Source of the DNA: an uncultured virus (IMG/VR IMGVR_UViG_3300028888_002345)
Taxonomy: Duplodnaviria > Heunggongvirae > Uroviricota > Caudoviricetes
Reading direction: 5' to 3' (one strand)
IMG/VR virus record: IMGVR_UViG_3300028888_002345
Length of the DNA: 64,000 bases
Of the stretch, positions 2 to 63,998 are shown one piece after another. Numbering within the stretch: the first letter of the stretch is position 1; each line of letters starts with the position of its first letter. The translations under genes and the position numbers were made by a program. Below the pieces are notes generated by a model, which saw nothing but the letters and a program-made list of their open reading frames with translations, was not told the DNA's origin and did no database searches.

Positions 2-2320
2 GTAAAAGCTGCTTCTACATATAATGTAAATACATCTAATCAAACTATTGCATCGGGGCAATATTTAACAGGAACACAGACAATTCGTGGTGTTACCACT
101 TCAAATATTTCAGCAGCAAATATAAAGAGTGGAGTTGTAGTTAAAGTTGGTGATTCAGCAGATGATGATAGAATTGCCGGTGTTACTGGAACTTTTACTG
201 CGGCAAACACTGTATCAAGCGGACAAACCGCGGCAGGTGCTTCCCAGATTTTATCTGGGTATTCAGGATTTGTAGACGGCGCGGAAGTTAAAGGTAATAT
301 TGTAACAAAAACATCTTCTAATTTAACAGCAAGCGGCGCTACTGTAACAGTTCCAGCAGGATACTATGCTTCCGAAGCAACAAAATCTGTTGCAACTGCA
401 ACTCATGCAAATCCTACAGCAAGTATTAATTCTTCTACAGGGGTAGTTACAGCGTCCCATACCCAGGCCGCGGGTTATGTTGCAGCAGGAACAACAACTG
501 GGACATTAAATCTTACCACGCAGGCAGCAAAAACTGTAACGCCAACTACTTCTGCTCAAACTGCTGTTGCAGCAGGCAGGTATACTACTGGTGCAGTTAC
601 TGTTGCAGCTATTCCAAGTTCTTATATTCAACCAGCAGGAACTATAAGTATAACTGCTAATGGAACTCATAATGTAAATGATTATAAGACTGCAAATGTA
701 AATGTACCAATTCCAGATGGATATATTCAACCAGCAGGTACTACAACTATAACTACTAACGGGACTCATAATGTGAATAATTATAAAGCAGCAGAAGTAA
801 ATATATAGCCTAATCTTGAATCTAATAAAAATGTTATTCCTTCTTAGGAGACGCAGATAATAACTGCTGGTACTTATAATATAGCAGGAACTACTGTATT
901 TTGGAAAGAAAGAACAGAAACAATTAATATATCTACTGGCCAGTCTAATGTTTATTATCAAGATTCAACAGCTGATCTTTACTATAAGTTATCTTATGAA
1001 AAACATGGGGCAGAACCAATCTTTTTTACTATTAAATGGAAAGTATATAATGAAAATCATACGGTACTCGATAGTGGGTCTTTCACTGAAATAAAAAATC
1101 CATCATCTTATTAGTATAATATAACTTTTGATAATCATATAGGATCTGGTGCAACAGAGGCCACACTTCGTTTTGATTGTTATAATAGTTATTATAGGCT
1201 TACTATGAATTCAGGAGCGACGCAGAATTTAATATATGAACTTACTATGAGTGGGGCAAACGTTGCTACTGGACAGTATGATGGTCTTGCACAGGTAACA
1301 GTAGAAGCTATACCAAGCTCTTATATTCAACCGGCTGGAACATTAGATATTACTACTGATGGGACTTATGATGTTAAAAATTACGCAAGCGCAAGTGTAA
1401 ATGTATCACCAACTTATACTTTAACTTTATTAGGTGCTCAAGGATCAACATATACTATAGAAAAAAATGGAGGAACTAGACAAGATTTTGTTACTGGTGC
1501 AACTTATAGTTTTGTTCCAGGTGATACATTTAAATTTAGAATTGTTGATGGTGGAACTATTTATCTTGATGGAGAGGTTGTATCAACTGGTGGTGGATAT
1601 ACAAATTCTTATACTTTTACTACATCAGATAATGATGTTAATGTAACAGCAAATAATTATAAAATATATATTGAAAACATAATTTCAACAATTTCTATTA
1701 CTGAAAATGGAACATACAATGTTAAAGATTATACTGTAGCTAATGTTAGTGTTAGTGCTCTATGTAATAATTATGATGATTTAATAACTCGTACAATTTC
1801 CGGAAATGTTAAGAATGAGACTGCTTCTATAGTTGGTAGGTATGCTTTTGCACAATGCTCGAAAATAGATAATGTAGAATTTACATTAGCAACATTAATT
1901 TCTCCAAGTGCTTTTATGTCTTGTTCTTCACTTCTATCAGTAAGTTTTCCTGTTGCAACAACAATAGATGCATATGCATTTTCCGGATGTAGCAAGTTAA
2001 GAAGTATTACATTCCCAGATTTACAATCTATTGGTAATTATGTATTTCAATATTGTTATTCTCTTTCGATTGTTAGTTTACCAAAAGCATCATTTATTGG
2101 AGCTGGTGCATTTTCTAATTGCAGAAGACTTGTTGATTTATATCTTCTTGGAAGCAGATTAGTAACACTTTCTAGTACTAATGCATTTAATAATACAATT
2201 TTTTCTGGATATTCAACATATACTAGCAATGGATATATCCACGTTCCATCATCTCTTTATTCATCATATTTAACTGCTACTAATTGGAGTTTCTTTTCAT
2301 CATTTTTCGTATCAGAATAA
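2..2320 (+). CDS. Tail fibre/receptor-binding-like protein with Thr-rich repeats and C-terminal BspA-type leucine-rich repeats (5' truncated; 3 in-frame TAG)
   Basis: Frame open from base 2 to TAA at 2320 apart from TAG at 806, 845, 1112; PSGYIQPAGT..ITTNG repeats; C-terminal IGxxAFxxCxxL repeats. Confidence 0.75.
612..810 (+). repeat. ~93-nt (31-aa) repeat units PxxYIQPAGTxxITxNGTHNVxxYxxAxVN
   Basis: Two tandem units here, one more near 1310-1410, three tandem units at ~3871-4170. Confidence 0.8.
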
Positions 2321-2343
2321 TTAAAATTGGAGTAAACTGAATA

Positions 2344-3321
2344 ATGAAATTACAAATTTTAATACCTCAATACCATGAAACTGATAATATCGTAAAACCA
2401 TTACTTGATAGCATAGCTCTTCAGCAAAATGTAGACTTTAATGAAATTGGAGTCGTCATAGTAAATGACGGCTCCGACGTCCACTTAAGTGACGCACTTA
2501 TAAATGGTTACCCATTTAAAATCGAATATTATTTTAATGAACATTTAGGAGTCAGTGCTACGCGTAATGCATGCCTTGATCATGCAACTGCAGATTATGT
2601 AATGTTCTGTGATGCTGATGATATGTTTTATAACATGTGTGGATTATGGATTGTATTTCGTGAAATTGAATATGGTGGTTTTGATAGTTTAACATCAGTA
2701 TTTGTTGAAGAAACAAGACACCCTGAAACAAAAGAACCTATTTATATTAATCGTGAAATGGATAGTACATTTGTTCATGGTAAAGTTCATAGACGGCAAT
2801 ATTTAATTGATAATGATATTCGTTGGAATCCTAATCTTACGATTCATGAAGATAGTTTCTTTAATATTCAATGTTCTAATCTTTCTCAGAATGTTAAATA
2901 TTGCCCTACTCCATTTTATTTATGGAAATGGCGAGATGAAAGTGTATGTAGACATGATCCAAAATATATATTAAAAACATATAAAAATATGATTGATAGT
3001 AATGATGCTCTTGTTGGTGAGTTTTTAAAACGTAACGCAAAAGATAAAGCATTATTCTATGTTGCTTTTATGATATTTGATGCATATTATACGATGAATA
3101 AAATTGAATGGATTAACCAAGAAAATAAAGAATATCGGGATATGACAGAAAAACATTTTCAAAAATATTATAAAAAGCATAAAAAACACTGGAATGAAAT
3201 TTCTCCAATGGATAAAATCCAAATTTCTCAAGGAATTAGAGGCAGAAGCGTAATGGAAGGAATGCAACTCGAATCAATGACTATTGATGGATGGTTAAAA
3301 CACATTGAAAGGATGAAGTAA
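2344..3321 (+). CDS. Glycosyltransferase family 2
   Basis: ILIPQY, IVNDGS, GVSATRN, FCDADD and HED motifs; no internal TAG. Confidence 0.9.
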   Translation: MKLQILIPQYHETDNIVKPLLDSIALQQNVDFNEIGVVIVNDGSDVHLSDALINGYPFKIEYYFNEHLGVSATRNACLDHATADYVMFCDADDMFYNMCGLWIVFREIEYGGFDSLTSVFVEETRHPETKEPIYINREMDSTFVHGKVHRRQYLIDNDIRWNPNLTIHEDSFFNIQCSNLSQNVKYCPTPFYLWKWRDESVCRHDPKYILKTYKNMIDSNDALVGEFLKRNAKDKALFYVAFMIFDAYYTMNKIEWINQENKEYRDMTEKHFQKYYKKHKKHWNEISPMDKIQISQGIRGRSVMEGMQLESMTIDGWLKHIERMK

Positions 3322-3363
3322 AATAAGATAAAATACTTTTATCCTATTTTAAGGAGAAAATAA

Positions 3364-7255: not shown

Positions 7256-7328
7256 GCCGTCATAATTCAGTTGGTAGAATGACTGATTTGTAATCAGTTC
7301 GTCCCGGGTTCAAGTCCTGGTGGCGGCT
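7256..7328 (+). tRNA. tRNA-Thr(TGT)
   Basis: Cloverleaf; ACTGA-TT TGT AA-TCAGT; GTTCAAG T loop. Confidence 0.95.
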
Positions 7329-7330
7329 CT

Positions 7331-7526
7331 AGGTGAAAAATCCTACCCGACTCACGGGGAAAAAGAGTGACTTCATAGTTCAAGAAGAAACTGTTCGGCG
7401 GCTTGGTGAGCACGCGGCCCGGGAAGAGAAGCGGGTAACTAAAATAACTTCTTCGCCGAGATATAAGGTTGTAAAAATAATATCGGGTCATTCCCATCGT
7501 GTATAAAGGGCTGCAGACCTTTATAA
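7331..7526 (+). ncRNA. Unassigned structured RNA
   Basis: GC-enriched non-coding stretch with several complementary segments (ACCCGA/TCGGGT, TTCGGCG/CGCCGAG, TATAAAGG/CCTTTATA). Confidence 0.4.
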
Positions 7527-7531
7527 GATTT

Positions 7532-7560
7532 TTGCAATTTTAAAAAATTTATGTTATAAT
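7532..7560 (+). promoter_or_regulatory. sigmaA-type promoter
   Basis: TTGCAA-17-TATAAT with extended TG. Confidence 0.65.
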
Positions 7561-7652
7561 ATTTATATAAGGTAAAGAAAGGAAAAAGAACAGAGTAAAC
7601 GCCGTTCCTAAGGACTTGAAATCGTACTCGACCTTATATGAATATTAAACTT

Positions 7653-7723
7653 GGAGATATAGCTCAATAGCAGAGCATACGGCTGTTAACCGTAGTACCT
7701 AGGAGCGTTACCTAGTATCTCCG
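7653..7723 (+). tRNA. tRNA-Asn(GTT), atypical elbow
   Basis: TACGG-CT GTT AA-CCGTA; T loop AGCGTTA; D loop has AG instead of GG. Confidence 0.85.
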
Positions 7724-7923
7724 TTAGATAGTAAGGCAGAGCTATCGGTAAATAAAATAAAATCTCCGGCGTAAGGTTTTAATAAGTTTCAATCTCGCCA
7801 CATCCGTAACAATAGAAACTTATAGAGAGGAAAATATGTAGTCACGGTTCGAGTCCGTAGGAAATGGGAAACTGATATTTTAGTTGCAACCCTCTTGTTA
7901 GAAGTTATTGCAAAACTTCTATT

Positions 7924-7992
7924 CGGAGTATAGTAATAATAGGTAGAATGACACTGACGAGTGCGATGTGGGTTCGATCCCCACTACTCCAA
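7924..7992 (+). pseudogene. Degenerate tRNA-like element
   Basis: Acceptor GGAGTA/TACTCC and perfect T arm GTGGG-TTCGATC-CCCAC, but poor D and anticodon arms. Confidence 0.5.
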
Positions 7993-8140
7993 GCCGTTGA
8001 AGGCCATCGATAAACCTTCCTCAAGTTTAGTCCACTTGCAGAACAGACAATACCAACAGGACCGTGAATATTCACAAGACTTTCCATTATTGATTTGATT
8101 AGTCTATAAAATAAAGCAAATCAAAAAACTAGTTTTTAAA

Positions 8141-8211
8141 AGGTATATAGTGTAAAAGGGAGCACGCACCCCTAAAAAGGTGAGGTCTAGGTTCAAATCC
8201 TGCGTATACCG
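8141..8211 (+). pseudogene. tRNA-like element with 8-nt anticodon loop CCTAAAAA
   Basis: GGTATA/TATACC acceptor, GTGT/GCAC D stem, CACC/GGTG anticodon stem, TTCAAAT T loop. Confidence 0.55.
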
Positions 8212-8434
8212 CTTGTCAGATAAGACGTTAAAATCGACGTTAACACGGATTAAGGAAAGGGTAAACTACCACCGGCACTTGACTGTAGACCTAAATGGGA
8301 ATCTCGGCCCAAAGGCGCGAGGGAGTCAATGATATGTGGCTTAGCGGAAAACGTCTAATAAGAAAGCGAAGTAACCCCACCATTCCTCCAGTTTTTGGGA
8401 GTTCGTCGCGGAGGTAAAACCTAAACCCGTTTTT

Positions 8435-8507
8435 ACTCCTGAGGACAAACAGCAGAGTCACTTGCCTGTCACGCAAGAGATAGCGGGAGCATCACCCGTC
8501 GGGAGTG
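8435..8507 (+). tRNA. tRNA-Asp(GTC), atypical elbow
   Basis: CTTGC-CT GTC AC-GCAAG; acceptor ACTCCTG/CGGGAGT; T loop AGCATCA. Confidence 0.8.
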
Positions 8508-8835
8508 TTAATAAAAATAATAATGTCAATCGGTATTAATAAGACGTCTAAACTACCGAAGAGTCCACTGGAAGAACCCAGCCGTCCTGTCGCAGTGACA
8601 ATGATGAGAGACGATACAACAGTACCTGCCATAGTGCACATAAAAATTCCGGCTATAAAAAAGTCAGGGAGCCGTAGAAATGGACAAAATTATTTTTATT
8701 TAAAATGTTGAATCTCACGGCTAAGCGTAGAGGAAGTTCGAGGTAGATTGGTTTGGAGGTATAGAGAAGTAGAAGCCTCGGTACGTAGTCAACAAGATGG
8801 GACAGGCAGAGTGAGAACATTTACCCATATAATAA

Positions 8836-8906
8836 CGCGGATTAGAGGAGTAGTACCTTGCTTGGCTCATAATCAAGAGACACCGGCGCACATCCGGTAT
8901 CCGCTA
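8836..8906 (+). tRNA. tRNA-Met(CAT), initiator-like
   Basis: CGCGGAT/ATCCGCT with C1:T72 mismatch; CT CAT AA loop; T loop CGCACAT. Confidence 0.8.
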
Positions 8907-9263
8907 TTCAGTACTGACATAAGGTAGTTTAGTATACAAGTTAGTGAAGAATGAATCACGCAAGTTTCTATGATGGACAAGGACTAGTCGCTTGAAACGG
9001 TTATTTGGTCACAACCACTTGCAGACTATAGCCTTATGAATTTTTAGGTTTGCGGTGTAAAAATCCTATAAAACCGCATTCTTCTCTTTTATGTAGTTTG
9101 TGGTCTACGTCTTATATCAAAACCACATTAATCTTTTCAATGAGGAAGGTAACGGGTAAGATACTCACTTCCTCTTTACAATAGAAAAGAGTAAAAGGAG
9201 CGCGGGCGGCGGTCCATTCTAGAAATGGACTAATATTTTCTGGATTATAGCGGCGCCCGCAGG

Positions 9264-9347
9264 TCCCTAATGTGGAACTATATAGCAGCTAAATGTCTAT
9301 TGACTCTTACAGCAGCTTTAGGTCGGGTTCGATTCCCGAATAGGGAA
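9264..9347 (+). ncRNA. tRNA-like element (acceptor and T arm only) containing the GACTCTTACAGCA motif
   Basis: TCCCTA/TAGGGA closing stem; TCGGG-TTCGATT-CCCGA arm. Confidence 0.45.
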
Positions 9348-9352
9348 TTTCA

Positions 9353-9485
9353 ACCTGGGTAAGGCCTGAATTGACAGGATATGACGTGCTGGTTGAGGTC
9401 CAGCGTTGGTTAGCTTACCGCCGGCAATGATGCGCTCATACCGGAGGCAAAGCACAAGTCTCGTGAGCGACGAACGTGCCAGGTA
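9353..9485 (+). ncRNA. Unassigned structured RNA
   Basis: ACCTGG/CCAGGT closing helix with internal hairpins (CCTG/CAGG, GCTGG/CCAGC, CCGG/CCGG). Confidence 0.45.
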
Positions 9486-9530
9486 AGGTTTAGATTTGTA
9501 CCGAAACGATTTTAAAAACAAATCAAATTT

Positions 9531-9559
9531 TTGACAATTATAAAAAATTTTGTTATAAT
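9531..9559 (+). promoter_or_regulatory. Consensus sigmaA promoter
   Basis: TTGACA-17-TATAAT with extended TG. Confidence 0.8.
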
Positions 9560-9719
9560 ATACATATAAAGAACAAAAAGTTCTTAATTTATATGAATTG
9601 AAGGTAAACTCCATTGGACAAGTAAGATTTTAGTAATGTAACTATTGTTTTGTTTGTAACTGATGACATTTTCTTCGAGCGGTCTCCGGCAATCGCTATA
9701 GAAAAATGCCGTTTTACTT

Positions 9720-9748
9720 TTGACAATTATAAAAATTTTTGATATAAT
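9720..9748 (+). promoter_or_regulatory. Consensus sigmaA promoter (near-duplicate of 9531)
   Basis: TTGACA-17-TATAAT with extended TG. Confidence 0.8.
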
Positions 9749-9804
9749 ATACATATAATAAATAATAAATAATAAATATAGTTTTGAAAGGAAAGTAAAT
9801 TAAT

Positions 9805-10155
9805 ATGACAAAAGAAAGTGTACAGGGACTTCTGTATTATTATGAAAATAGTGCTGATCTTGATGAGGGTATTAGAGTTCAGACTGTCGAAGTTCTTAAT
9901 GATGTAATTGCAAAGATGGATGAAGAAGCTGCTATTCTGGCTAAGAAACGTAAGAGTCCAAATAAGAGTGGCGTTGTTCAGGTTGATCCAGAAACTGGTA
10001 AGATTGTTGCAGAATTTGCTTCTCAGAAAGAAGCTCTGATTGCTATCGGAAAAGATCCGAAGAAATCTGGAATCAGTGATGCTATTAATGGAAGAACATC
10101 TACTCATATGGCTTATGGTTTCAAATGGTACTTCAAGGACGAGTTTAAAGCCTAA
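9805..10155 (+). CDS. NUMOD1-like DNA-binding domain protein
   Basis: VVQVDPETGKIVAEFASQKEA...ISDAING...AYGFKWYF. Confidence 0.7.
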   Translation: MTKESVQGLLYYYENSADLDEGIRVQTVEVLNDVIAKMDEEAAILAKKRKSPNKSGVVQVDPETGKIVAEFASQKEALIAIGKDPKKSGISDAINGRTSTHMAYGFKWYFKDEFKA

Positions 10156-10284
10156 TAAGGTTTTATACATATTATAATCATAATTATCCTTTCTCGGTTT
10201 TATAGTTTTTCTCCTTAAAAAACTATTCTTTTTTACATATGTGCCGGTTAAATGATAAAAGTTCATATATAAAAAAGAAACTAA

Positions 10285-10367
10285 GCGGTTGTGGTGGAAT
10301 CGGTAGACACTAGGGTCTTAAAAACCCTTGGCTTCGAGCCGTGTGGGTTCAAGTCCCACCAGCCGTA
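10285..10367 (+). tRNA. tRNA-Leu(TAA)
   Basis: AGGGT-CT TAA AA-ACCCT; long variable arm. Confidence 0.95.
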
Positions 10368-10638
10368 TTTAGAGTGGCTGAAAGTTTGGTGCTTGAAAGT
10401 TTAAAAAATAATTATATAATGAGGGTGAAGGCTTATACTTCTTAATGAGGTCATGAAAAGGAACACTGGCGCAATGCACTGATGCGGTGATTATATACTG
10501 GGGCGAGTAGAATACCAGAAAACCTCTCGCGAGCAATCTCATTGGACATAACTAGGTAATTATTATATTTTTATTTTTTAAATGAGTAAGATAGTAGCCA
10601 ATAAGTGAACATGCTGTATAATATAGTTCTACTCTAAA
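10368..10638 (+). ncRNA. Unassigned ~270-nt structured RNA between the two Leu tRNAs
   Basis: TTTAGAGTGG/CTACTCTAAA closing helix; no ORF. Confidence 0.35.
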
Positions 10639-10642
10639 ATTT

Positions 10643-10722
10643 ACCCTTATGGTGGAATTGGTAGACACGTATGCCCTAGGAGCATATGCTTATGCGTAAG
10701 AGTTCGAGTCTCTTTAAGGGTA
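10643..10722 (+). tRNA. tRNA-Leu(TAG anticodon) with C33
   Basis: TATGC-CC TAG GA-GCATA; GGTGGAATTGGTAGAC D arm. Confidence 0.85.
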
Positions 10723-10779
10723 TCAGAAAACATTTTTCGTTTTCTTACCTCCTTTCTTTTTATAAATAAATAGTTTTTA

Positions 10780-10833
10780 AAGGCACATACAGCAATTTAA
10801 AACAGTTGTTATGGAGACTATTTTAGTGCCTTG
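10780..10833 (+). ncRNA. ACAGCAA-motif small RNA, copy 1
   Basis: AAGGCAC/GTGCCTT helix followed by ATACAGCAAT. Confidence 0.55.
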
Positions 10834-10839
10834 TTATTT

Positions 10840-10914
10840 AGGAATGTGGCGCAACTGGTTAGCGCAGAGGTCTTATAAACCTAAGGTTTACGGGTTCAAG
10901 TCCCGTCATTCCTA
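10840..10914 (+). tRNA. tRNA-Ile(TAT)
   Basis: AGGAATG/CATTCCT; AGGT-CT TAT AA-ACCT. Confidence 0.9.
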
Positions 10915-10993
10915 TTTTTATAGTCCAGGCTAGCTCTAGACTTTAAACTATGTTAGTATATCTTGTTGGCTAGTAGAGAGATATACTAATTAA

Positions 10994-11065
10994 GTCCCCT
11001 TGGTCAAGTGGTAAAGACTCCTGACTCTAAATCAGGCAACATCGGTTCGAATCCGATAGGGGGTA
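10994..11065 (+). tRNA. Amber suppressor tRNA(CTA) with tRNA-Glu-like body
   Basis: GTCCCCT/AGGGGGT acceptor, TGGTCAAGTGGTAAAGAC D arm, CCTGA-CT CTA AA-TCAGG (anticodon 11027-11029), 4-nt variable loop CAAC, ATCGG-TTCGAAT-CCGAT. Confidence 0.93.
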
Positions 11066-11070
11066 GTTAA

Positions 11071-11154
11071 GCCGATATGGAGTAATGGTATCTCAATAGA
11101 TTGCTAATCTATCCTACCAAAAAGGTAGTCTGCGTTCGAATCGCGGTGTCGGCG
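11071..11154 (+). tRNA. tRNA-Ser(GCT)
   Basis: ATAGA-TT GCT AA-TCTAT; long variable arm. Confidence 0.92.
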
Positions 11155-11157
11155 TTA

Positions 11158-11271
11158 AAGACTCGTAAACTGCAATAAACAAGTAAATGGATATAGAAGA
11201 ATAGATCACCTATTTGGTTTCTGATCAAAACCTAGTTTAGATTTTCTATAAAAAAATCAAAACGAGTCTTG
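11158..11271 (+). ncRNA. ACAGCAA-motif small RNA, copy 2 (ACTGCAA variant), with anticodon-like hairpins
   Basis: AAGACTCGT/ACGAGTCTT helix; GGTTT-CTGATCA-AAACC and GATTTT-CTATAAA-AAAATC hairpins. Confidence 0.55.
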
Positions 11272-11276
11272 TATAT

Positions 11277-11362
11277 GGTAAGATGACCGAGTTGGTCGAT
11301 GGTGCTTGTCTTGAAAACAAGAGAAGGTAAAACTTCCGTGGGTTCGAATCCTACTCTTACCG
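11277..11362 (+). tRNA. tRNA-Ser(TGA)
   Basis: CTTGT-CT TGA AA-ACAAG; long variable arm. Confidence 0.93.
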
Positions 11363-11382
11363 TTTCAAAAGGAGGGTTAATT

Positions 11383-11565
11383 ATGAAAAAATATGAAACA
11401 AGTAATGAAAATTATACTTTAAATTTTGCTTAGACACAAAATGAAATTTTAAATTAGGAATAGGATATTATTCCTCAAAGTATTTTTAATGAGAAACAAG
11501 AATAGGTTAAATTATTCTTTGGACCAAAAAGAAATATTCATACTCATTCAACATTAAAAGTATAA
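11383..11565 (+). CDS. 60-aa hypothetical protein with 4 in-frame TAG
   Basis: GGAGG RBS, ATG 11383, TAA 11565. Confidence 0.55.
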
Positions 11566-11572
11566 TTATTTA

Positions 11573-11868
11573 GGGGTAGTAAAGGGTTTCGACAAATTAA
11601 AAAAGTATATAATTCGTCAAAAGTTTAAAATTAAACGCAAATAATTATTCATATGCAATGGCTGCGTGATTAAGCCATACCAAAAAATATTAAGATGATA
11701 CTGGTAAATATTGAGGGTTAAAAACAAGTATATTAGTTTCTTATTTTATTAAAAAATAAGTGGTGGACTTGGTGAGAGAAGAATATCTCATTGAGATGTA
11801 TCCCTAACGACGTAAAGATTATATATGAGTATTAGTTATGGACACGGGTTCAATTCCCGTCTACTCCA
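11573..11868 (+). ncRNA. ssrA: tmRNA; tag (A)ANNYSYAMAA ending in TGA (11637-11669)
   Basis: GGGGTAG/CTACTCC acceptor with G3:U70, TTCGAC, resume codon GCA, 3' GGACACGGGTTCAATTCCCGT. Confidence 0.93.
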
Positions 11869-11878
11869 TCTATATTAA

Positions 11879-11951
11879 AGAGTATGTGGTGTAATCAGGG
11901 AGCACGCTACATTTGGGATGTAGAGGCGCGGTTCAAATCCGACATATTCTA
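11879..11951 (+). tRNA. tRNA-Pro(TGG)
   Basis: CTACA-TT TGG GA-TGTAG; T stem imperfect. Confidence 0.8.
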
Positions 11952-11953
11952 TT

Positions 11954-12334
11954 ATGAAAAAAATATGTGCTTATTGTAAAAAAGAATTTGAAATTATTCC
12001 TCGGCAAGGAGGAATGAATCGTAAAGTTTGTTATAGTTGTATTCCAGATAATTTAGAAAAAAATGAAAGGGCTAGATTAGAAAGAAGTATAATTAGAAAT
12101 ATACTAAATAAAGAAAAAGCTGAACGTGGATGTGATATATGTGGCTATAATAAGTGTCCAGCTGCATTAGAATGGCATCATACAGGAGATAATAAAAACT
12201 TTAATCCTGGAGATATTTCAAGAATAGGAACTGTATCAAGCTTAGAAAAATATAGAGAAGAAACAAAAAAATGTATTTTAGTATGTGCTAATTGCCATAG
12301 AGAAATACATTGGAATTTAGAATATAATAATTAA
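11954..12334 (+). CDS. HNH endonuclease-like protein (free-standing, inside the tRNA array)
   Basis: CDICGYNKCPAALEWHH...CILVCANCHREIH. Confidence 0.8.
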   Translation: MKKICAYCKKEFEIIPRQGGMNRKVCYSCIPDNLEKNERARLERSIIRNILNKEKAERGCDICGYNKCPAALEWHHTGDNKNFNPGDISRIGTVSSLEKYREETKKCILVCANCHREIHWNLEYNN

Positions 12335-12338
12335 AATA

Positions 12339-12410
12339 CGGGATATAAGTTAATAAGGAGACAGGCGGACATAAGTACGCGTAGTGTTAGTGCAAATCTA
12401 ACTATCCCGA
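12339..12410 (+). pseudogene. Degenerate tRNA (Pro-like acceptor)
   Basis: CGGGATA/TATCCCG; GTTAG-TGCAAAT-CTAAC; disrupted anticodon arm. Confidence 0.6.
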
Positions 12411-12601
12411 TTAACAGGTGAAGAAAATAATATATAGGGACGTTGTAGAGAACCAACTCTGTAAAGGTACGCAACCCTTCCTGTTATTTCCGATCTAGCA
12501 TGACTAGAAACGGATTATGCCGAAGGTAAGGCGGTAGCAAAAGAAAACCTTACTAATATTAAGAAAATGCCTAAGATGTGAGAACGGCAGAAGGAGATAA
12601 T

Positions 12602-12865
12602 ATGAAATATTTTTCAGAAATCACAAAAGAGTTATATGACTCAAAAGAAGATTTGGTAGCAGCAGAGGTTAAAGCCACTAAAGCTAAATCAGATCGTGAA
12701 GTAAAAGCAAAAGAAGTAGAAAAATTACTTAAAGAAGCAACAGAAGCAACTAAGAAAGCTAATAAGGCACTTAACGATTTTGTTAAGGAATATGGTAGTT
12801 TTAAAACTACTCTTAAAGAAAGTCCTTATGATTTCTTCGATGTTCTTGATAAATTTCTTTGGTAA
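12602..12865 (+). CDS. Hypothetical coiled-coil protein
   Basis: AAGGAG RBS, ATG 12602. Confidence 0.75.
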   Translation: MKYFSEITKELYDSKEDLVAAEVKATKAKSDREVKAKEVEKLLKEATEATKKANKALNDFVKEYGSFKTTLKESPYDFFDVLDKFLW

Positions 12866-49925: not shown

Positions 49926-52900
49926 ATGACGAGATTCTCAGTACATAATCATACGGAGATGTCAAACTTCCGTTTATTGGATTGCATTATAAAATTACCA
50001 GACCTTATTAAAAGAGGAAAAGAGATTGGGTTAGCTGGATTGGCAATTACTGACCATGAAACAATAGCCCAATCTATTCGTGTGTGTAAATTACAAAAAG
50101 AAAATCCAGATTTTAAAATTGCAATAGGTAATGAAATTTATCTTACTGATACAAGAGATAAGGGACAGAAATATTATCATTATATTTTAATTGCAAAAGA
50201 CAAAGAAGGACATAAACAACTGCGGCGGTTGTCCTCAAGGGCATGGCTTTGTTCATATTGGGATAGAGGTATGGAAAGAGTCCCAACGTTAAAAGAAGAA
50301 CTTGAAGCAGTCGTTAGAAAAAATCCTGGTCATCTTATAGCTACATCAGCTTGTATCGGCAGTGAGTTAGGAAGTTCAATTCTTGAATTAACCTCTGCAA
50401 GAACAACCGGTAACGTGAAAGCCGAGTCCGCGGCTTATCAGCGCATCATAGATTATATTAATTTTAATAAAACCCTCTTTGGGTCTGATTTCTATCTGGA
50501 AATAGCGCCGGCCGCGAGTAAAGAGCAGATTATAGTAAATAAGATGATTTCTAAACTATCATCTCTTTATTCTATTCCTATTGTTATTGGCGATGATAGT
50601 CATTATCTTAAAAAAGAAGATAGATACATTCACAAAGCGTATCTTAACTCAAAAGGTGGAGAACGTGAAACAGATTTATTTTATGAGTATTCTTATCTTC
50701 AAGATGAGAATGATATAAGAAAAAATCTTGAGCCAAGTGAAATTGATATTGACTCTTGCTTTAATAATAGTATGGAAATATTTGATAAAATTGAAGTATA
50801 TAATTTACTTCATAGTCAAACAATTCCAAGTGTACCTGTTAAAGATTATTCAAAAGGACAAATTCAAGGTAGATTAGAAACTTCAAAAACACCAGGAATT
50901 GCTTATACTTTTACTATTCCTGATGAAGAATATTATCCAGAAATATATCGAATGTATTATTCAGAAGATAAATATGAAAGATATTGGATAAACGAATGTT
51001 GTAAAGAATTAGTTAATAAAAATCTTGACAAAAAAGAATATTGGAATGAACTTGAAGAAGAAGCAAGAGTAAAAAGAGTTATAGGTGAAAAACTTGGAAC
51101 AAATATGTTCAAGTATCCTATTACTCTTAAATATTACATTGACATGATGTGGGATTGTGGTTCTCTCGTAGGCGCAGGTCGTGGATCATCTTGTGCAGCC
51201 CTTAATCATTATCTCTTAGGTATTACTCAGCTTGATCCTATTAAATGGAATCTTCCATTCTTTCGATATATGAACGATGAACGAGTAGAACTTGGTGATA
51301 TTGATATAGATATATGCCCTTCAAAAAAAGGAACAATAGTAAAAGAGATTAAGAAAGAGCGCGGCAGCCGGTTCAACCCGGATATAGACCAGCTTTCCAG
51401 AGATAATCTGGGTTGTACTTTGATAGCTACATATGGAACGGAAGGAACTAAGTCAGCAATTCTTACGGCTTGTCGTGGTTATCGTCATTTAGAATATCCA
51501 AATGGCATTGATAATGATGAAGCGCAGTATATTGCAAGTCTTGTTCCAAGTGAACGTGGATTCTTATGGTCTATTGATGAAGTTGTAAATGGCAATCCTG
51601 AAAAAGGAAGAAAACCTGTAGATTTATTTATTAAAGAAGTAAATGAATATCCAGGACTTCTTGATATTATAAAAGGTATTGAGGGTCTTATAAATAAACG
51701 ATCTTCTCATGCAAGTGGTGTTATTTTGTTTGATGAAGATCCATATGAATTTGGTTGTTTTATGAGAACTCCAAAGGGAGAGGTTATTACTCAATATGAT
51801 CTTCATGACTGTGAAGCTGCGGGTTTAACAAAGTATGACTTTCTTGTTACTGAAGTGCAGGATAAATTAGCACAAGCAATAAAATTCCTTCAAGAAGATG
51901 GTTGTATTGAAAAAGATATGAGTCTTCGTGAAGTTTATAATAAATATTTTCATCCTAATGTACTTCCATTAGATCGACAAGATGTATGGGATGCAATTAG
52001 AGATGGTAAAGTTATTAACGTGTTTCAGTTTGATAGTGAAGTAGGTAGTCAGGCTGCAAAGAAAATTAAGCCACAAACTATTTTAGAGTTAAGTGATGCT
52101 AACGGTTTGATGAGACTTATGACTTCAGAGCAAGGTGCTGAAACGCCAATGGAAAAATATATCAGATTTAAAAGTAATATTAAACTCTGGTATAATGAGA
52201 TGGATAGATATGGACTTACAAAAGAGGAACAGAAAACTCTTGAACCATATTTCTTATCATCTTATGGAGTCCCACCATCACAGGAACAGTTAATGACAAT
52301 GTTGATGGATAAAAATATATGCGACTTTTCTCTTAAAGAAGCGAATGCAGCTCGTAAGATAGTCGGTAAGAAGCAGATGAATAAAATCCCAGAATTACAT
52401 CAAAATATTCTTGATAAAGCAAAAAGTAATGCTTTAGGACAGTATGTATGGGATTGTGGTGTTGGTCCTCAGATGGGGTACTCTTTTTCAACGATTCATG
52501 CATTAGCATATAGTTTTATCGGTTATCAAACTGCTTATATTGCGACAAATTGGAATCCAATATATTGGGATACAGCTTGTTTAGTTGTTAATAGCGGTAG
52601 TTTAGAGGATAATGATAATGAATACGATGACGATGAACTTTATGAAAATGAACAGCCAAGCAAGAAAAAAGAAACTGGCACAGATTATGGAAAGATGGCC
52701 AAGGGGCTCGGCGAAATCATTGCAGCTAACATCAAAGTTAGTTTAGTTGATATTAATAGATCAGATTATGGATTCAAACCAGACGTAGAAAATAACCAAA
52801 TCTTATTTGGAATGAAAGCATTGGGTTATGTTGGTCAAGATGTCGTTAATAAAATTAAAGAAGGTAGACCGTATAATAGTTTAAAAGATTTTATGGATAG

Positions 52901-53918
52901 GTGTTATTTAAATAAAACAGCTATGATAAATCTTATTAAAGGTGGTGCATTTGATGAATTAGAGTCCGCTTGGGCAAAACAATTAAATGTATCTCCAAGA
53001 ATTTTAGCGATGGTTTATTATCTTAGTGTTGTATCTGAACCGAAGAAAAAATTAACTTTACAAAATTTTAACGGTTTAATTGAACGAGGTCTTATTCCTG
53101 AAGAATTAGATTTTCAACGTAGACTTTTTAACTTTAATAAGTATTTAAAAGCACATAAAGAAGCAACATATTACGTGATAGTTGATAAGCCGGCCGCGGA
53201 TTTCTACCAAAAATATTTCTCTCTTGATAACATAGAAAAAATAGAAAATGGAAAAGCATATTTACCTCAAAAAACCTGGGATAATATTTATAAAATAAAT
53301 ATGGATGAAGCAAGAGATTATCTTAAAATTCATCAAGAAAAAGTATTAAAAGAATATAATACTCTTCTTTTCAAAGAACAATGGGATAAATATGCAAAAG
53401 GAAATATTTCATCTTGGGAAATGGAAGCTTTATGTTTTTATTATCATGACCATGAATTAAAATATATAGATAATCAAAAGTATGGAATTAAAAACTTTTT
53501 TGATCTTCCAATAACTCCTGAAGTAGAATATTTTTTCAAAAGGAATGGAAAACAGATTCCTATTTATAAACTTTGTAGAATCGCTGGAACCGCTATAGGG
53601 AAGAATGATACTAGACATAGTGTAACATTACTTACAGTTAATGGTGTAGTAAATGTTAAATTTTCTCGTGATTATTATGCCATGTTTAATCGTCAATTAA
53701 GTGAAAAAAATGAACAAGGAGTTAAAAAAGTAAAAGAAAAAGGTTGGTTTACTCGTGGAACAAAACTTCTTGTTACAGGTTATCGTCAAGATGATACTTT
53801 TATTTCAAAAAAATATCAAAAAACCGGTGGTCATCAATTATATATGATTACTGAAGTTGAAGGAAGAAATATAAATATAACTTCAGAAAGATATGGTATT
53901 AACGATGAATAGCAATAA
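49926..53918 (+). CDS. dnaE: DNA polymerase III alpha subunit (family C); the only TAG is at 53910, two codons before TAA
   Basis: PHP HNHT/TDHE; GAGRGS; DIDID; HASG; KYDFL; YSFS..H. Confidence 0.93.
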
Positions 53919-58796: not shown

Positions 58797-59090
58797 TTAC
58801 ATCATCATTTCTCGATCATGCATATTTCCCATATTTTCTTTTTTTATCATTAAATCGTCATGGTCATAATACATTGGTCTTCTATATCCATAAGAAGAAC
58901 TTCCATTGCGTCCTCCGCGATTTTCATACATAGGATAATAACCATAATTATATTGATTATATTGACTTTCTTTCTGTCTTAACTAATCTCTGACAATATA
59001 TAATGATGCTAATTTCATGCAATTATTATAAGTAGCAGAACTACTCTATAAATCTCGAATAGCTTCTTCAACTTCATGAAGGTTTAACAT
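58797..59090 (-). CDS. Hypothetical protein (2 TAG)
   Basis: MLNLHEVEEAIRDL*SSSATYNNCMKLASLYIVRD*. Confidence 0.7.
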
Positions 59091-59673
59091 GGTCAAACTC
59101 CTTTCTCAACTAACTAAATTTTTTAGTATATTTTTTAATTAATAACTATTGTTCAGAAACAATAGTAGGTAAATCATAATCTGTAGCTTTTATCTATAAA
59201 TATTTTCTCTAAGCTTCTTTAATCTATTCATCTACAAAACATATATATTTTTTAATTTCAATTAAAAGTGTTATATACCTTTGATTAAAAGCCTAAGTAT
59301 ACATTTCTTCAAGAAAAGCTTTTACCTATTTTTCCCAGCGTATATATTTTTCTAACCCGCTTTTTACTGCATTTCTTCGAGTAATTAAATCAACATCTTC
59401 TCTTGCATAACCGTACCAATTGGATGGGATAATAGAAAAGGATGAAGATGTTAATGATTCAGTAGAAAACTAAGGAATTATTTTATTCTAATGCTATATA
59501 TAATAAGTTATAAAATCTCTATAGTGAAACATCTATTCAAAAAAATGATATTCATGAGCAAGTTTATAACCCTATAATCCTATAAAATTATAATAATTAG
59601 CAAATTCCTAATGATTCATACACCCTTGCAATAATTTTTGAGCAATTAATTTACAAATTTCTTCAATAGGCAT
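59074..59673 (-). CDS. Ferritin-like helical protein (13 TAG)
   Basis: H*EFANYYNFIGL*GYKLAHEYHFFE*; WEK*; VDE*IKEA*RKYL*. Confidence 0.7.
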
Positions 59674-59687
59674 TATGATTCTCCTTA

Positions 59688-60095
59688 TTAACAAATTTTA
59701 GTTACTGTTATACCAACAATAGGAAAAGTTCCAGCCTATCCAGTATTAATTATTTGAATAGTAGTGGGGCTTGTATTACAGCAACAAGTATTATTTTCTC
59801 TTACTTGTACAAGAGTAGTAAAACCTAATGTTGTAGTCTAATCCGCGGCGCCCGTTGCAGTACTGAATGAACCCTGGTCTAATAAACCATTTTTAGCCAG
59901 TTGAATACTGACATCACCGGCGGCCGCAGGTGTAATACTAGCATCTACAGATACCATATAAATTCCACTTCTATTAAACTGAATTGTAGCAGGCGCACTT
60001 AAAACTGCACTTTGTCCTTTTGCTAAACTTATATTATTAAATGGAATTGAACCATTCTAACCCACTTCTACATTTAAACTATACAATTTTAACAT
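59688..60095 (-). CDS. Beta-sandwich hypothetical protein (3 TAG)
   Basis: IPFNN, IQFNRSGIYMVSV, TCCCN. Confidence 0.7.
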
Positions 60096-60173
60096 TTTAT
60101 TTTCTTATCTCCTTTTAATAGGGCAGAGATAGATTATCCCTGCCCTGGTGTACTAAATACACTCGTTTAAAAA

Positions 60174-60893
60174 TTACATACCACAGCCACAGCTGCAGCC
60201 ACATCCGCACCCAGTATTACAGAATGGAGATGTACCGGCATTATAAGCCCAAGAATTTGGGTATCTTAATACACCTGCCATAGCATTTTGAAGTTCTAAT
60301 GCATTAATCTTAGACTGGAGTTCTTCAATTTTATTTTGAGAAAGAACATCTAAAATTTTCTGTGTTTGAGCTGCTGTATTGGCATTAATAGCTGCTGTGT
60401 TCATAGCCGAATCATATCTAGATTGAGCTATATTAGAATTTATACCATTTCCAGTTTCAAGAATAGCCATTCTAGTATCGCAGCAACATGCATTCTGATT
60501 AGCTATTGCTTGCTGTTGAGCGAGACTTAAATTGCCAATATCTCTTGTAATTTCTGAATATTTATCACTTAAAACTGAAATAGTATCATGGAAAGTTTGG
60601 TTAGTAGCAGAGACAGCTTGTGCAGTACCATTTGTAACAGCTGCAAGAATATCTCTTTGATTTGACATACTATTTTGATTATCAAAACCACGCTGTACTT
60701 CATTTGAAGTAGCAAGATTTTCATAACCAATTGCGTTAGCAAAACCATTATTTCCACCCCATCCTCCAAAACCGTTACCGGCAAGAAGAAGAAGAGCAAA
60801 AATCCACATAAAAGAAGCATCACCCCAACCATTATTATTTCCATTTCCACTGAGTAAAGCGACATCGCTAGGACTTAAATTTCCGTTTTCCAT
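60174..60893 (-). CDS. Conserved Gly/Asn-rich protein with Cys-rich tail (spore-coat-like family)
   Basis: GFGGWGG, VQRGFD, QNACCCD, TQKILD, CGCGCSCGC. Confidence 0.75.
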   Translation of the reverse strand: MENGNLSPSDVALLSGNGNNNGWGDASFMWIFALLLLAGNGFGGWGGNNGFANAIGYENLATSNEVQRGFDNQNSMSNQRDILAAVTNGTAQAVSATNQTFHDTISVLSDKYSEITRDIGNLSLAQQQAIANQNACCCDTRMAILETGNGINSNIAQSRYDSAMNTAAINANTAAQTQKILDVLSQNKIEELQSKINALELQNAMAGVLRYPNSWAYNAGTSPFCNTGCGCGCSCGCGM

Positions 60894-60915
60894 TTTTTCT
60901 TTCCTTTTCTTTTTA

Positions 60916-61176
60916 TTATTTTAGCATATTCAAAATAGAATTAGGATCAATTCCTCTTTGCTATGCTAATAGATAAAATAATTCTTTTGGAGACTTGTTA
61001 CTTGTTTGCATTAAAGAATAGATATTTTGTATATTTGGATTATTTTTTATTAAGTTATTTAAAAACTCTTGTTGATTTGAACTATTTTTAAAACTATTTA
61101 TTAATCGTTTTATATTGCTGTTTTCTGGAAGACTATTGCTATTTTGTCTATTCAGCTGTTGATAAAGACTATTCAT
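60916..61176 (-). CDS. Hypothetical protein (1 TAG)
   Basis: Read-through adds LA*QRGIDPNSIL. Confidence 0.7.
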
Positions 61177-61606
61177 GTTTTCTTATCTCCTTTATTGCCT
61201 ACTAAAATTCATTTTTTGTAACATAATTAGATAAATCTAATTCTAAATTATTTTGATTGCTTTGAGTGTCACTGTTTATATCTGGCTATTCCATATAGTT
61301 AAAAATCCTTAACTTACCTAAGCCAATATCATCAGTCGTTTTAATATAAAATTTACCAATTTCACTATCTAATAATATAACCGTACTATTAGGAGGAAGT
61401 TGCATAGACCGCGCGTTTTCTTTGCCTTTCACCCATATAATATTATTAGATGTTTGTTGAGTAGGCGATATAGAATTATTATGATTATTGTTTAAATAAT
61501 TATAATTATATGGATTGGAAGGAAAAGAAAACTGATTAGGATTATTCCATAAATAATTTTGATTAGAAAAATTATTCATTGGATTAGACATATTCATGTT
61601 ATTCAT
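61088..61606 (-). CDS. Hypothetical protein (several TAG; 3' end uncertain)
   Basis: IIWVKGKENARS..PNSTVILLDSE..FYIK; YVTKNEF**AIKE. Confidence 0.65.
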
Positions 61607-61741
61607 TTTATTTATTTCTCCTTTTACAAAATATTTATTCTTTATTTTTTTTGTCAATATTATACAAAAATACTTTAAGATATTTTATCTATTTTGTCTA
61701 AAAACGAGCAAAAAAATAAAGGCTTAATGTAAAAATTTACA

Positions 61742-62794
61742 TTAAGCCTTTAAATATTTTTTATCTCGTATCCAATAAAGCCATTCTCTAAATGAAAATT
61801 CAAAAAGAAAAGTTTCAATTTGATTTTTAGCTACATTAAAAATAAGCTAATATTCTTCTGGACTGTCTGTTTTAAAAAACTTATATATATCTTCTATTGT
61901 TATATTAAACTATTCTTCTAAAATAAGTATATACTTTCTTATATGGTCACAGTTTTTTATTAAATACTAAGGAGTTTTGTATCTTCCATATTCATTATAA
62001 AAATAAGAATAAAGTAAAACTTTTTCAATTTGTTTTTCTGTAAAATCCCTATTTAATCCAGATTCTTTATAAAAATTATATGCTATACCTGCTGTTGATT
62101 CTATATAGTCAATTAAGAACATATCTATAAAAACACGCTATTTACTTTCAGCCATATATTTACGATTTGAAAGTGAATCAGGGTTAGCTACCCAAATATA
62201 AGTAATTAAATCTGTTTTATATAAAGGAAGATTATAAGCAAGACGAATAAATTCCATCTAAGTAGAAATACATATATCTTCATGAGAAGTCATATCTTTT
62301 ATATAATGAAGATTATATTTTTTCCAAAAGTTATCAAGATTAAAAACTTTTCCATGTGTCCATCCTGCAAATTGAGGCATTTCAAAAAATTTATCATTAA
62401 CCTTTTTTACAAATTTAGTAAGAAAAACAGTATCACAACCAGTCTCTTCTATTTCTTTTTTTAATTTAGGAAGAGCACCTTTTACAAGCTAATCATCATG
62501 ATCCATAAAAATTAGCCATTCTCCAAGGGCTTGATCTGCTCCCTTTTGTCTTGTATTTCCAGGACAACAATTATAATCAGTTTTAGTTTGAGTAATAAAT
62601 AATTTGTCTGTGTATTGATTTACAATATCTTGATAACTTTCTGTAGAACAATCATCAGAAAGAATTACTTGAATTTCATCATATCCCATCTATTGAGATA
62701 TAATACTATCTAATGCTGTTCCAATAGTTTCTCTTGAATTATAACAAGGAATAACTATTGAATAAAAAGGTCTATTATTTGTTAATGTAGGCAT
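61742..62794 (-). CDS. Glycosyltransferase family 2 (7 TAG)
   Basis: SIVIPCYN, SDDCS, PGNTRQ, DHDD*, THGK, HED. Confidence 0.85.
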
Positions 62795-63248
62795 ATCCTA
62801 ATCCTATTGCATCTGCGATGTCATCATTTACCTATATATTGAAGTGGTCTTTTACCCATTGAATATCTAATTCTTTTTGTTGTTGACGTCTAACTCCTCG
62901 TCCTTGTTTTATTTGACAAGTTTTACGCCAACTTGATGGATATAAGAAATCTATTTGTAAGTGTTTAAAGTTCTAATGTATCATCATTGATAAACAACCT
63001 TGTAGATACATTAGAACTTTATAAGTTTGTACATTAACAAAGCTCTCTTGTCTAACCTACTCAAGAACCACATATTCTAAATCTGGATTTTCAATAAGTA
63101 TTTTTTGTATACTATCAACCATAACTTTTATTCGATTTAAGAAGTCTAAAGATGTAGCTGTAATACAAGTATAATACTAAAGTTTATTATGTTTATAAAT
63201 TGCTATACCAGTACTTTTAGAGCTAGCATCGATTGCTAATAAATTCAT
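62775..63248 (-). CDS. RuvC-like Holliday junction resolvase (4 TAG)
   Basis: LAIDASSKSTG, VVLE*V, PSSWRK, NDDIADAIGLG. Confidence 0.82.
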
Positions 63249-63317
63249 TTATTTTCTCCTTTTGTTTAGTTATAGTATAACAAAATTTTTTAAAAAAATC
63301 AAATATTAAATAAGATT

Positions 63318-63998
63318 TTATGAAAATAGTTTAGATAAATCCTTACGACCTACAATTTTACGAATAACAGCAAAACCATTAGGATAAGTTCCTCCAGTGT
63401 CGGTAGTAACACTATATGTTGCACTTGAACCTGCAGCAGCTCCATTCCAAGACCATATAGTATGCTCTCCTAATTTAAGTTGATTAGTATAAGATTCATT
63501 TAAACCAAAATTAAGTGAACAAATAGCTAAATTTCCCTGTGCATCTATTTGTACTTCTCTAAGGAAACCTCCACTCATTGATAAAAAAGAAGATGTTTCA
63601 ATAGTTCTTGTTTCATTCTAACCATAAAAATCAACATAAAAATCAAGATAATCATAGTTAGTAATATCATCTATTAAATTAAATATTGTACCTACTGCTC
63701 TTTTAGTACCTGTCCATAGAACTTTTTCACTATTAGTTATTGCAGCTTTTTGTTCATTTAAATCTTCTTGTAACTGAAGTATTAAAGCCATATCAGCATT
63801 ACCGCCTTCTGCGGTAATGGTTCCTATAAGATTTCTTAAATCTTTAACCTGTTCTCTAACAGCCTATCCAGCAGAATTATATTGAGTACTGTCATAACCT
63901 ATTCTAATGTCATTAACTTCAGTATTTTCAACTAATTTACGACCCACAATTTTCTTTAAAGTTATTAAAGTTCTTTGACCACTTACTGGGTCAGAATA
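63318..63998 (-). CDS. Virion/tail-like protein, 5' truncated (2 TAG)
   Basis: EVNDIRIGYDSTQYNSAG*AVREQV; frame open to the window edge. Confidence 0.7.

Follow-up and report, generated by a model that had tools for sequence, protein, structure and literature searches.

The 64,000-nucleotide stretch of DNA analysed here, referred to throughout as the window and taken from the uncultured virus IMGVR_UViG_3300028888_002345, raises the question of what its many in-frame TAG codons mean. A sequence-only reading of the window had proposed that TAG stands for glutamate (Glu) and not for glutamine (Gln), the residue given to it in phages assigned to 'genetic code 15'. TAG is a sense codon in the window, and codon alignment with related phages leads us to put the probability that it is sense and read mainly as Glu at roughly 90%. 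Recoding of stop codons by phages is already known; Glu as the residue concerned is not known to have been described for it.

With TAG taken as sense, a greedy, non-overlapping set of open reading frames (ORFs) of at least 70 amino acids comprises 77 ORFs, which cover 87.3% of the window and hold 191 in-frame TAGs. Their terminators are TAA (63) and TGA (14), as follows from the ORF definition, and no gene needs TAG as its end. When the tRNA region (7000-14800) is set aside, TAG occurs in 36 of 64 ORFs (172 in total) and is absent from 28, matching the 'about 35 genes' of the sequence-only reading. Under code 11 the genes of the window are fragmented, with stop-to-stop ORFs of at least 100 amino acids covering a fraction of 0.608, compared with 0.855 when TAG is sense and 0.662 when TGA is sense. 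Genes interrupted by TAG include PhoH/PIN, holin, lysozyme-CHAP lysin, GIY-YIG, RecJ (DHH), NrdD, dUTPase and GT2, all named by Pfam, and the Pfam domains extend across the TAGs in PhoH, RecJ, the lysin, GT2 and NrdD. The TAG-bearing genes on which the argument draws are as follows.

20996..22240, plus strand: PIN-PhoH ATPase (Pfam), 10 TAG, one of them (22004) at the position of the Walker-B glutamate
22722..23084, plus strand: holin (Pfam Phage_holin_6_1), 2 TAG
23077..24855, plus strand: lysin with phage lysozyme, CHAP and peptidoglycan-binding domains (Pfam), 11 TAG
32633..33697, plus strand: GIY-YIG nuclease with a coiled-coil N-terminus, 18 TAG, that is 18 of 43 Glu-type codons
43487-44023 and 44049-44885, plus strand: two paralogous genes, codon 19 being TAG in the first and GAA in the second
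45280..47091, plus strand: RecJ-like DHH exonuclease (Pfam), 15 TAG
16368..16526, minus strand: small ORF with a TAG at 16413, labelled XkdX-like by the sequence-only reading
59074..63947, minus strand: TAG-rich block, with 13 TAG in an unknown 206-aa protein, 3 in a BclA-C-like protein, 8 in an unknown 189-aa protein, 9 in GT2, 4 in a RuvC-like protein and 2 in the ORF 63318-63947

The sites singled out earlier all proved to be present, namely in-frame TAG at 22004, 22058, 33566, 23500, 24361, 22869, 46810 and 43541 and, on the minus strand, at 63864 and 16413, as did the start/stop couplings ATGA at 56705 and 33694 and TAATG at 20996 and 22722.

It could be asked whether these TAGs are errors, traces of pseudogene decay, or codons edited to GAG at the RNA level. 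Nothing was found in favour of this, and the 191 TAGs stand in genes that hold not a single in-frame TAA or TGA. A second public contig (L006) is 100% identical to the window over 13 genes, with identical TAGs, and 42 aligned pairs set a TAG of the window opposite a TAG of a relative. Nor does GAG take the place of TAG in other samples, which were compared as assembled contigs, at the sites that these cover: the PhoH-lysin stretch is covered by contigs of other sheep and cattle gut runs, several pieces of which are identical with their TAGs kept, and a 2,994-base piece from another run, 98.5% alike, shows one change that touches a TAG (22335, G to T) among the 40 of its 99 differences that were listed. 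Three contigs from one RNA library, which may contain DNA, are identical to the window and keep TAG at 21908, 22869 and 23500, speaking weakly against editing. The window also encodes a cognate CUA tRNA. We regard errors, decay or editing as having practically no probability, and at the DNA level the error and decay reading is already refuted.

For the residue itself, DNA of relatives was taken from viral contigs, ORFs were called with TAG as X and aligned by BLASTP, and the codons were read back; an empirical substitution table built from the remaining codons of the same alignments then gave a log-likelihood (logL) for each of the 20 residues. One relative, G002 (194 kb, 99% complete), encodes 34 tRNAs, including tRNA-Glu (UUC, CUC) and tRNA-Gln (UUG, CUG), has no suppressor tRNA, is free of in-frame TAG wherever its genes align with those of the window, and therefore serves as a standard-code reference. 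Against it, the TAGs of the window face Glu at 23 of 43 sites, Gln at 1, Lys at 3, Asp at 4 and other residues at 12. Glu is the best of the 20 residues, with a logL of -82.9 compared with -111.6 for Asp and -116.5 for Gln, placing it 28.7 units above Asp, with logL(Glu)-logL(Gln) at +33.7. The internal control behaves as expected of ordinary codons: Glu codons of the window face Glu in 48% of cases, and its Gln codons face Gln in 39% and Glu in 9%, the corresponding values for TAG-bearing genes only being 48%, 44% and 7%. The claim that TAG is Glu rather than Gln is borne out by this pairing as a strong inference.

When all relatives were tallied (16 loci, the identical L006 being dropped), 292 pairs faced a TAG of the window: 103 Glu, 42 TAG, 36 Lys, 25 Gln, 17 Asp and 69 others. 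In the reverse direction, the 212 TAGs of relatives face 93 Glu, 42 TAG, 21 Lys and 12 Gln in the window. The logL is -561.6 for Glu and -718.9 for Gln, and -323.9 and -488.9 in reverse. Relatives share sites and the pairs are not independent, so sites were counted as well, using the 91 TAG sites of the window that have a non-TAG partner. The residues found among the relatives, by class of site in the window, are these.

TAG sites: Glu and no Gln 38, Gln and no Glu 10, both 11, neither 32
GAA sites: Glu and no Gln 169, Gln and no Glu 11, both 20, neither 73
CAA sites: Glu and no Gln 10, Gln and no Glu 72, both 18, neither 36

The profile of TAG resembles that of GAA and is the reverse of that of CAA. 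Tallied in this way, at the codon level on relatives' DNA as the sequence-only reading had suggested doing for residues, the columns opposite TAG give Glu and are not dominated by Gln. As a positive control, the same pipeline was applied to phAss-1 (OQ749652), a distant relative of which 49 ORFs match G002. Its 52 sites against G002 gave 11 Gln and 6 Glu, with a logL(E)-logL(Q) of -18.3, and the comparison with G001, another relative, gave -14.9. The method can thus return Gln, and the Glu result for the window is no general artefact of TAG-recoded genomes.

Individual sites point the same way. In an alignment with the PhoH structure 3b85, the residue opposite the TAG at 22004 is the E of DEAQN, the Walker-B motif, and relatives have GAA (G002, L007, L011) or TAG (L014) at this position; in the alignments with PDB structures, one of five TAG sites in the PhoH domain fell on a conserved residue, and no RecJ site was informative. 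The holin TAG at 22869 faces GAA in 3 relatives, CAA in 2, GCA in 1 and TAG in 1, the lysin TAG at 23500 faces GAA in G002 and L014, and the GIY-YIG TAG at 33566 faces GAA in 4 relatives, TAG in 3, AAG in 1 and TAC in 1. Of the 15 TAG sites in RecJ, 14 are aligned with G002, facing GAR at 9, CAG at 1 and other codons at 4. Within the window, the paralogue comparison made by the sequence-only reading is confirmed, with codon 19 being TAG at 43541 in the first gene and GAA at 44103 in the second within an otherwise identical stretch. Composition is also consistent with Glu: the 28 TAG-free genes contain 7.84% Glu and 2.85% Gln, and in the 36 TAG-bearing genes Glu (6.43%) plus TAG (1.63%) comes to 8.07%.

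The window encodes a candidate reader of TAG within a large tRNA array, the relevant features of which are the following.

7256..14809, plus strand: tRNA array of 16 tRNA calls and a tmRNA (ARAGORN, Rfam)
10994..11065, plus strand: tRNA with anticodon CUA (amber suppressor) and an apparently tRNA-Glu-type body (ARAGORN; Rfam tRNA 62.4 bits)
12982..13054, plus strand: ordinary tRNA-Gln (UUG) with U1, G2, G3 and G73, and a D stem unlike that of the suppressor

No tRNA-Glu with a Glu anticodon is found among the 16 tRNA calls of the array. The suppressor folds into a normal cloverleaf, with G1.U72, U2.G71 and C3:G70 in the acceptor stem, U11:A24 in the D stem, a variable region of 4 nt, and as discriminator base A73, which is that of tRNA-Glu and not of tRNA-Gln. 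In the D arm and the variable region it aligns with the tRNA-Glu of G002 and of the viral contig L030. The tRNA-Gln of both the window and G002 have another D stem and an acceptor end with U1, G2, G3 and G73. Transfer RNAs for Gln are marked by a weak 1:72 pair starting with U1, by G2:C71 and G3:C70, and by G73. A suppressor of tRNA-Gln type would be expected to carry these features, and the suppressor of the window does not. Neither does it have the YUC anticodon and Watson-Crick G1:C72 pair of an ordinary tRNA-Glu; having CUA and G1.U72, it is to be seen as a derivative of one.

A scan of viral contigs for the D-arm pattern (GUCA...AGAC-type, with two degenerate positions) returned at least 112 loci and at least 99 tRNAs that hold it; among the matches listed, 96 of 99 such tRNAs are tRNA-Glu (72 UUC, 24 CUC), 1 is another CUA suppressor and 2 are 93-base oddities. 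The latter, in the viral contigs L076 and L087, have a tRNA-Glu-type 5' half and an insert near the anticodon, are called Pro(agg) by ARAGORN, and may be interrupted tRNAs. Under a profile built from 66 distinct tRNA-Glu with the anticodon masked (training range 43.6-97.9), the suppressor scores 44.7 and ranks third among the tRNAs scored, after the two true tRNA-Glu of G002 (70.0 and 69.6); the next is a tRNA-Asp (39.3), and the tRNA-Gln (UUG) of the window scores 8.7. The case for a Glu-type tRNA is mainly one of D arm, variable region and non-Gln acceptor end, and it gains from the relatives: G005 has a tRNA array syntenic with that of the window and a CUA tRNA at the same place (ARAGORN), which shares the D stem of G005's own tRNA-Glu. 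Further CUA suppressors with a Glu D arm occur in other viral contigs, L144/L128 and L145. One phAss-1 suppressor (62536-62610) has a Gln-like acceptor end.

The suppressor of the window and the unrelated one of L144/L128 both open with a G1.U72 wobble, the consensus of the 66 viral tRNA-Glu being G1:C72. The exact 19-base D-arm string has two viral matches, in a tRNA-Glu (CTC) and in a TTA suppressor, and one bacterial match, which is not a tRNA; the TTA-anticodon tRNA, an ochre reader at 145-218 of the 497,513-base viral contig L029, also has a Glu-like variable region. An exact-pattern scan with the anticodon-arm string gave 0 matches, and BLAST of the suppressor against the contigs of five relatives yielded just a 17-base match in G002. 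Raw pairwise tRNA identity was discarded as an isotype test, as it showed no discrimination and its top match was a tRNA-Thr at 69%.

Several observations weigh against glutamate as the residue or against its source in the suppressor, and two alternative decodings draw on some of them. The assignment rests wholly on alignment. Against G002, 19 of 43 TAG sites face neither Glu nor Gln; among all relatives, 10 of the 91 sites face Gln and never Glu; codon 391 of PhoH is CAA or CAG in 4 close relatives, though GAA in G002; and Lys (36/292) and Gln (25/292) are commoner opposite TAG than opposite true Glu codons. The tRNA departs from the set of identity elements of glutamyl-tRNA synthetase (GluRS) in A36 and in having G1.U72 and U2.G71 in place of Watson-Crick pairs, and when the D arm is masked as well its Glu-profile score falls to 22.6, lower than that of two tRNA-Asp. 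It is possible that a minor share of other residues is inserted at TAG. As to the mechanism proposed below, the gating role of TAG is deduced from its distribution alone, and the window is about one third of the genome, leaving it possible that a phage-encoded synthetase lies elsewhere.

If TAG were Gln, as in 'genetic code 15' phages, the Glu partners would be tolerated E-to-Q replacements. The 10 Gln-only sites and codon 391 of PhoH would fit, related phAss-1 and probably L012 use Gln, and database translations of the window's own proteins carry Q. The single Gln against 23 Glu in the comparison with G002 and the 33.7-unit deficit in logL contradict this. The true Gln codons of the same genes face Gln in 39-44% of cases and Glu in 7-9%. 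It would also turn the Walker-B Glu of PhoH into Gln, raise the Gln content of the TAG-bearing genes to 4.88% compared with 2.85% in TAG-free genes, and assign Gln to a suppressor that lacks the acceptor end of tRNA-Gln. We consider a Gln code very improbable. Ambiguous decoding, in which TAG is mostly Glu with some Gln, Lys or termination according to the level and charging of the tRNA, would account for the excess of Lys and Gln and accommodate the unusual acceptor end and A36 of the suppressor; the end of the PolIII alpha gene, TAG-CAA-TAA, also works read either way. However, AAG and CAG are single-base neighbours of TAG and may explain the same excess under a pure Glu code, and Glu is conserved at TAG against G002 (23/43) no less than at true Glu codons (48%). 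Ambiguous decoding seems improbable to us, and TAG read mainly as Glu is the decoding that we carry forward.

TAG is used unevenly. Overall it makes up 172 of 1377 Glu-type codons (~12%), but core replication genes (gyrase, PolIII alpha, ligase, primase, helicase) avoid it: gyrB has 0 of 50 (P=0.0013), gyrA 0 of 64 (P=0.0002) and PolIII alpha 1 of 106 (P=1.2e-5), this one being the penultimate codon, followed by CAA-TAA. The genes in question lie as follows.

25183..32578, plus strand: largely TAG-free block of gyrB, gyrA, a phosphoesterase, an ATP-dependent DNA ligase and small ORFs, one of which (27337-27585) has 2 TAG
49926..53918, plus strand: PolIII alpha, with a lone TAG at codon 1329 of 1330 and the 3' end TAG-CAA-TAA

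TAG is frequent in genes for nucleases, recombination, lysis, glycosyltransferases and fibre-like proteins, reaching 18/43 Glu-type codons in the GIY-YIG gene, 15/45 in RecJ, 13/29 in the gene at 59074-59694 and 10/30 in PhoH. On gene distribution, then, the window shows the avoidance of the recoded codon in early and replication genes that characterises recoded phages. In four genes (43487, 44049, 57803, 40840) the third codon is TAG, giving MKX or MIX, and translation of these would end just after initiation if there were no suppressor.

These features enabled us to propose a model for how TAG is decoded. The suppressor would derive from a tRNA-Glu by the change of CUC to CUA, one change at position 36. 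The GluRS of the host would charge it with Glu despite A36, and the host amidotransferase would leave this Glu unconverted because the suppressor lacks the U1-A72 end of tRNA-Gln. Glu would then be placed at TAG in competition with release factor 1, and the TAG-bearing genes (nuclease, recombination, lysis, surface modification) would be completed only after the suppressor tRNA had accumulated. The charging route leans on what is known of bacterial GluRS, of non-discriminating GluRS and of the recognition of U1-A72 by GatCAB. We think it somewhat probable that the charging route and the timing role are as described. The timing model is the one proposed for other recoded phages by Borges et al. 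(10.1101/2021.08.26.457843).

The same analysis applied to relatives suggests that the window is one of several phages with this code. Their codes, with logL(E)-logL(Q) where a value applies, would be as follows.

G004: TAG=Glu, +25.1, with 17 Glu and 1 Gln at 49 sites
L011: TAG=Glu, +17.7
L003: TAG=Glu, +11.9
L001: TAG=Glu, +7.8
L004: TAG=Glu, +4.8
L014: TAG=Glu, +4.6
G003: TAG=Glu, +5.7 and +7.5
G005: TAG=Glu, weakly, +1.8 and +3.6
G001: TGA=Trp, in-frame TAG being absent; its genes aligned with G002 contain 57 in-frame TGAs, 30 of them facing TGG
L012: an 11,572-base viral contig that leans to Gln, -7.4, from a small sample of 27 in-frame TAGs in four ORFs

G001 (L157-L162; 111,855 bases, containing L005) has a GyrB 72% identical to that of the window, and taking TGA as sense lifts its ORF cover from 0.725 to 0.873. 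A standard code for G001/L005 is ruled out by the in-frame TGAs, and '13 TAG' counted in G001 were traced to off-frame ORFs. L012, whose GyrB is ~69% identical to that of the window, has two sites at which every aligned relative has CAA or CAG, and it is possible that it represents a TAG=Gln lineage. A Gln lean of the partial locus L017 (-3.8) was replaced by Glu on the full contig G003. L013 has essentially no in-frame TAG, and the standard code is represented by G002. A tree of GyrB places the window with G005, L008 and L010, and a second clade (support 96/99) comprises G003, G001, G002, L012 and L013; as this tree draws on one gene, is rooted at its midpoint and has a very long branch to phAss-1, it was not used to establish an order of events.

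It is conceivable that within one group of large phages from the rumen and gut, stop codons have acquired new meanings repeatedly over short distances, with a standard code (G002), TGA=Trp (G001), TAG=Gln (phAss-1 and probably L012) and TAG=Glu (the window and at least 8 related contigs). In this scenario TAG=Glu would arise whenever a tRNA-Glu, and not a tRNA-Gln, gains the CUA anticodon, perhaps an easy route in hosts without glutaminyl-tRNA synthetase, needing GluRS only; if so, a sizeable share of 'code 15' in the databases would encode Glu. This broader scenario is one that we hold about as readily as we doubt it.

Reassignment of a stop codon to glutamate has precedents in cellular eukaryotes, as peritrich ciliates read UAR as Glu in their nuclear code (NCBI table 30). 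Blastocrithidia is likewise reported to have UAR=Glu (PMC12153298). The window resembles both in the residue to which a stop codon is reassigned, and differs in that theirs are codes of cells in which UAA is reassigned too, whereas here a virus with its own tRNA, in a presumably standard-code host, reassigns TAG only. A mechanistic likeness is offered by supE of E. coli, a laboratory amber suppressor (tRNA-Gln with CUA) that inserts Gln at low efficiency while TAG remains a stop. In both cases one anticodon change would make an elongator tRNA a reader of UAG that the host synthetase still charges, as we infer for the tRNA of the window; the differences are the tRNA-Glu scaffold and the use of TAG for ~12% of Glu-type codons in window genes.

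For phages, the literature that we searched assigns TAG to Gln and TGA to Trp, or TGA to Gly where the host uses code 25. Borges et al. (10.1101/2021.08.26.457843) observed only TAG-to-Gln and TGA-to-Trp where the code of the phage differs from that of its host, Al-Shayeb et al. (PMC7162821) left the residue open as 'TAG to X', Cook et al. (PMC11210395) used table 15, and the phAss-1 study (PMC10607447) derived TAG=Gln from a TerL alignment and tRNAscan-SE. In the full-text literature searched, subscription journals and closed supplements being outside its scope, TAG=Glu is not reported for any phage or bacterium. The window shares with 'genetic code 15' phages (crAss-like, Lak, Garnet/Topaz and the phAss-1 group), as portrayed by Borges et al., in the phAss-1 study and by Peters et al. 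(PMC9523058), the in-frame TAG in many genes, the phage tRNA(CUA), the avoidance of TAG in early and replication genes and a host presumed to use the standard code. It differs in the residue, theirs being described or shown as Gln, whereas the TAG of the window faces Glu and its tRNA appears to be of Glu type.

Gene callers and databases apply table 15 to every TAG-recoded phage, and the proteins of the window would be mistranslated if TAG is Glu. In the database copies of its RecJ and PhoH, Q stands at each of the 15 TAG positions of the former and each of the 10 of the latter. When 119 homologues of either protein are aligned, Gln makes up 17-28% of columns that otherwise show only Glu, compared with 0-0.2% Glu in Gln-invariant columns and 0.2-0.9% Asn in Asp columns, and the Walker-B Glu column of PhoH has Q in 33 of 120 sequences. 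As the window's own entries have Q at every TAG, the entries of its relatives are probably table-15 translations too, and the Q in their Glu columns looks like mistranslation of a Glu codon. Protein-database homologues were for their part not used as the main tally, the E/Q asymmetry being an indirect sign. Replacement of E by Q at the Walker-B or another catalytic glutamate is a classic inactivating substitution, and the wrong residues would therefore fall where function is inferred or where a protein is folded or engineered.

If our assignment is correct, a stop-to-Glu code would here be seen in a bacterial virus for the first time, and the residue at a recoded stop would be set by the scaffold of the tRNA and not be limited to Gln or Trp. 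The group would offer a natural system for how closely related phages switch codes, and the tRNA, as a naturally occurring amber suppressor for glutamate, might find a use in Gram-positive genetics.

The window, with a G+C content of 30.5%, is clearly part of a large AT-rich phage genome, and its source is a large phage of virulent type from the gut of sheep and cattle, metagenome runs from which provided the contigs carrying it. Pfam identifies genes for replication and repair (gyrase B, gyrase A, ATP-dependent DNA ligase, DnaB, PolIII alpha, SF1 helicase, RecJ), nucleotide metabolism (NrdD, dUTPase) and lysis (holin, lysozyme-CHAP lysin), together with PhoH, a GIY-YIG nuclease, glycosyltransferases and BspA-type repeat proteins. 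The domains of the lysin suggest a Gram-positive host. The tRNA array also contains a tmRNA at 11573-11868 (Rfam 61.3 bits, tag peptide ANNYSYAMAA), and G005 has a tmRNA at the same place. A tRNA-like element at 8142-8212 is borderline, with an irregular anticodon loop, an ARAGORN call of '???' and an Rfam score of 29.5 bits against a gathering score of 29; the ~3 kb around it (7000-10300) hold no convincing ORF. Finally, a small ORF at 36597-36818 with 5 TAG ends in 13 residues that are a near-exact repeat of the C-terminus of the preceding AAA_24 gene (35578-36540), and looks like a partial duplication.

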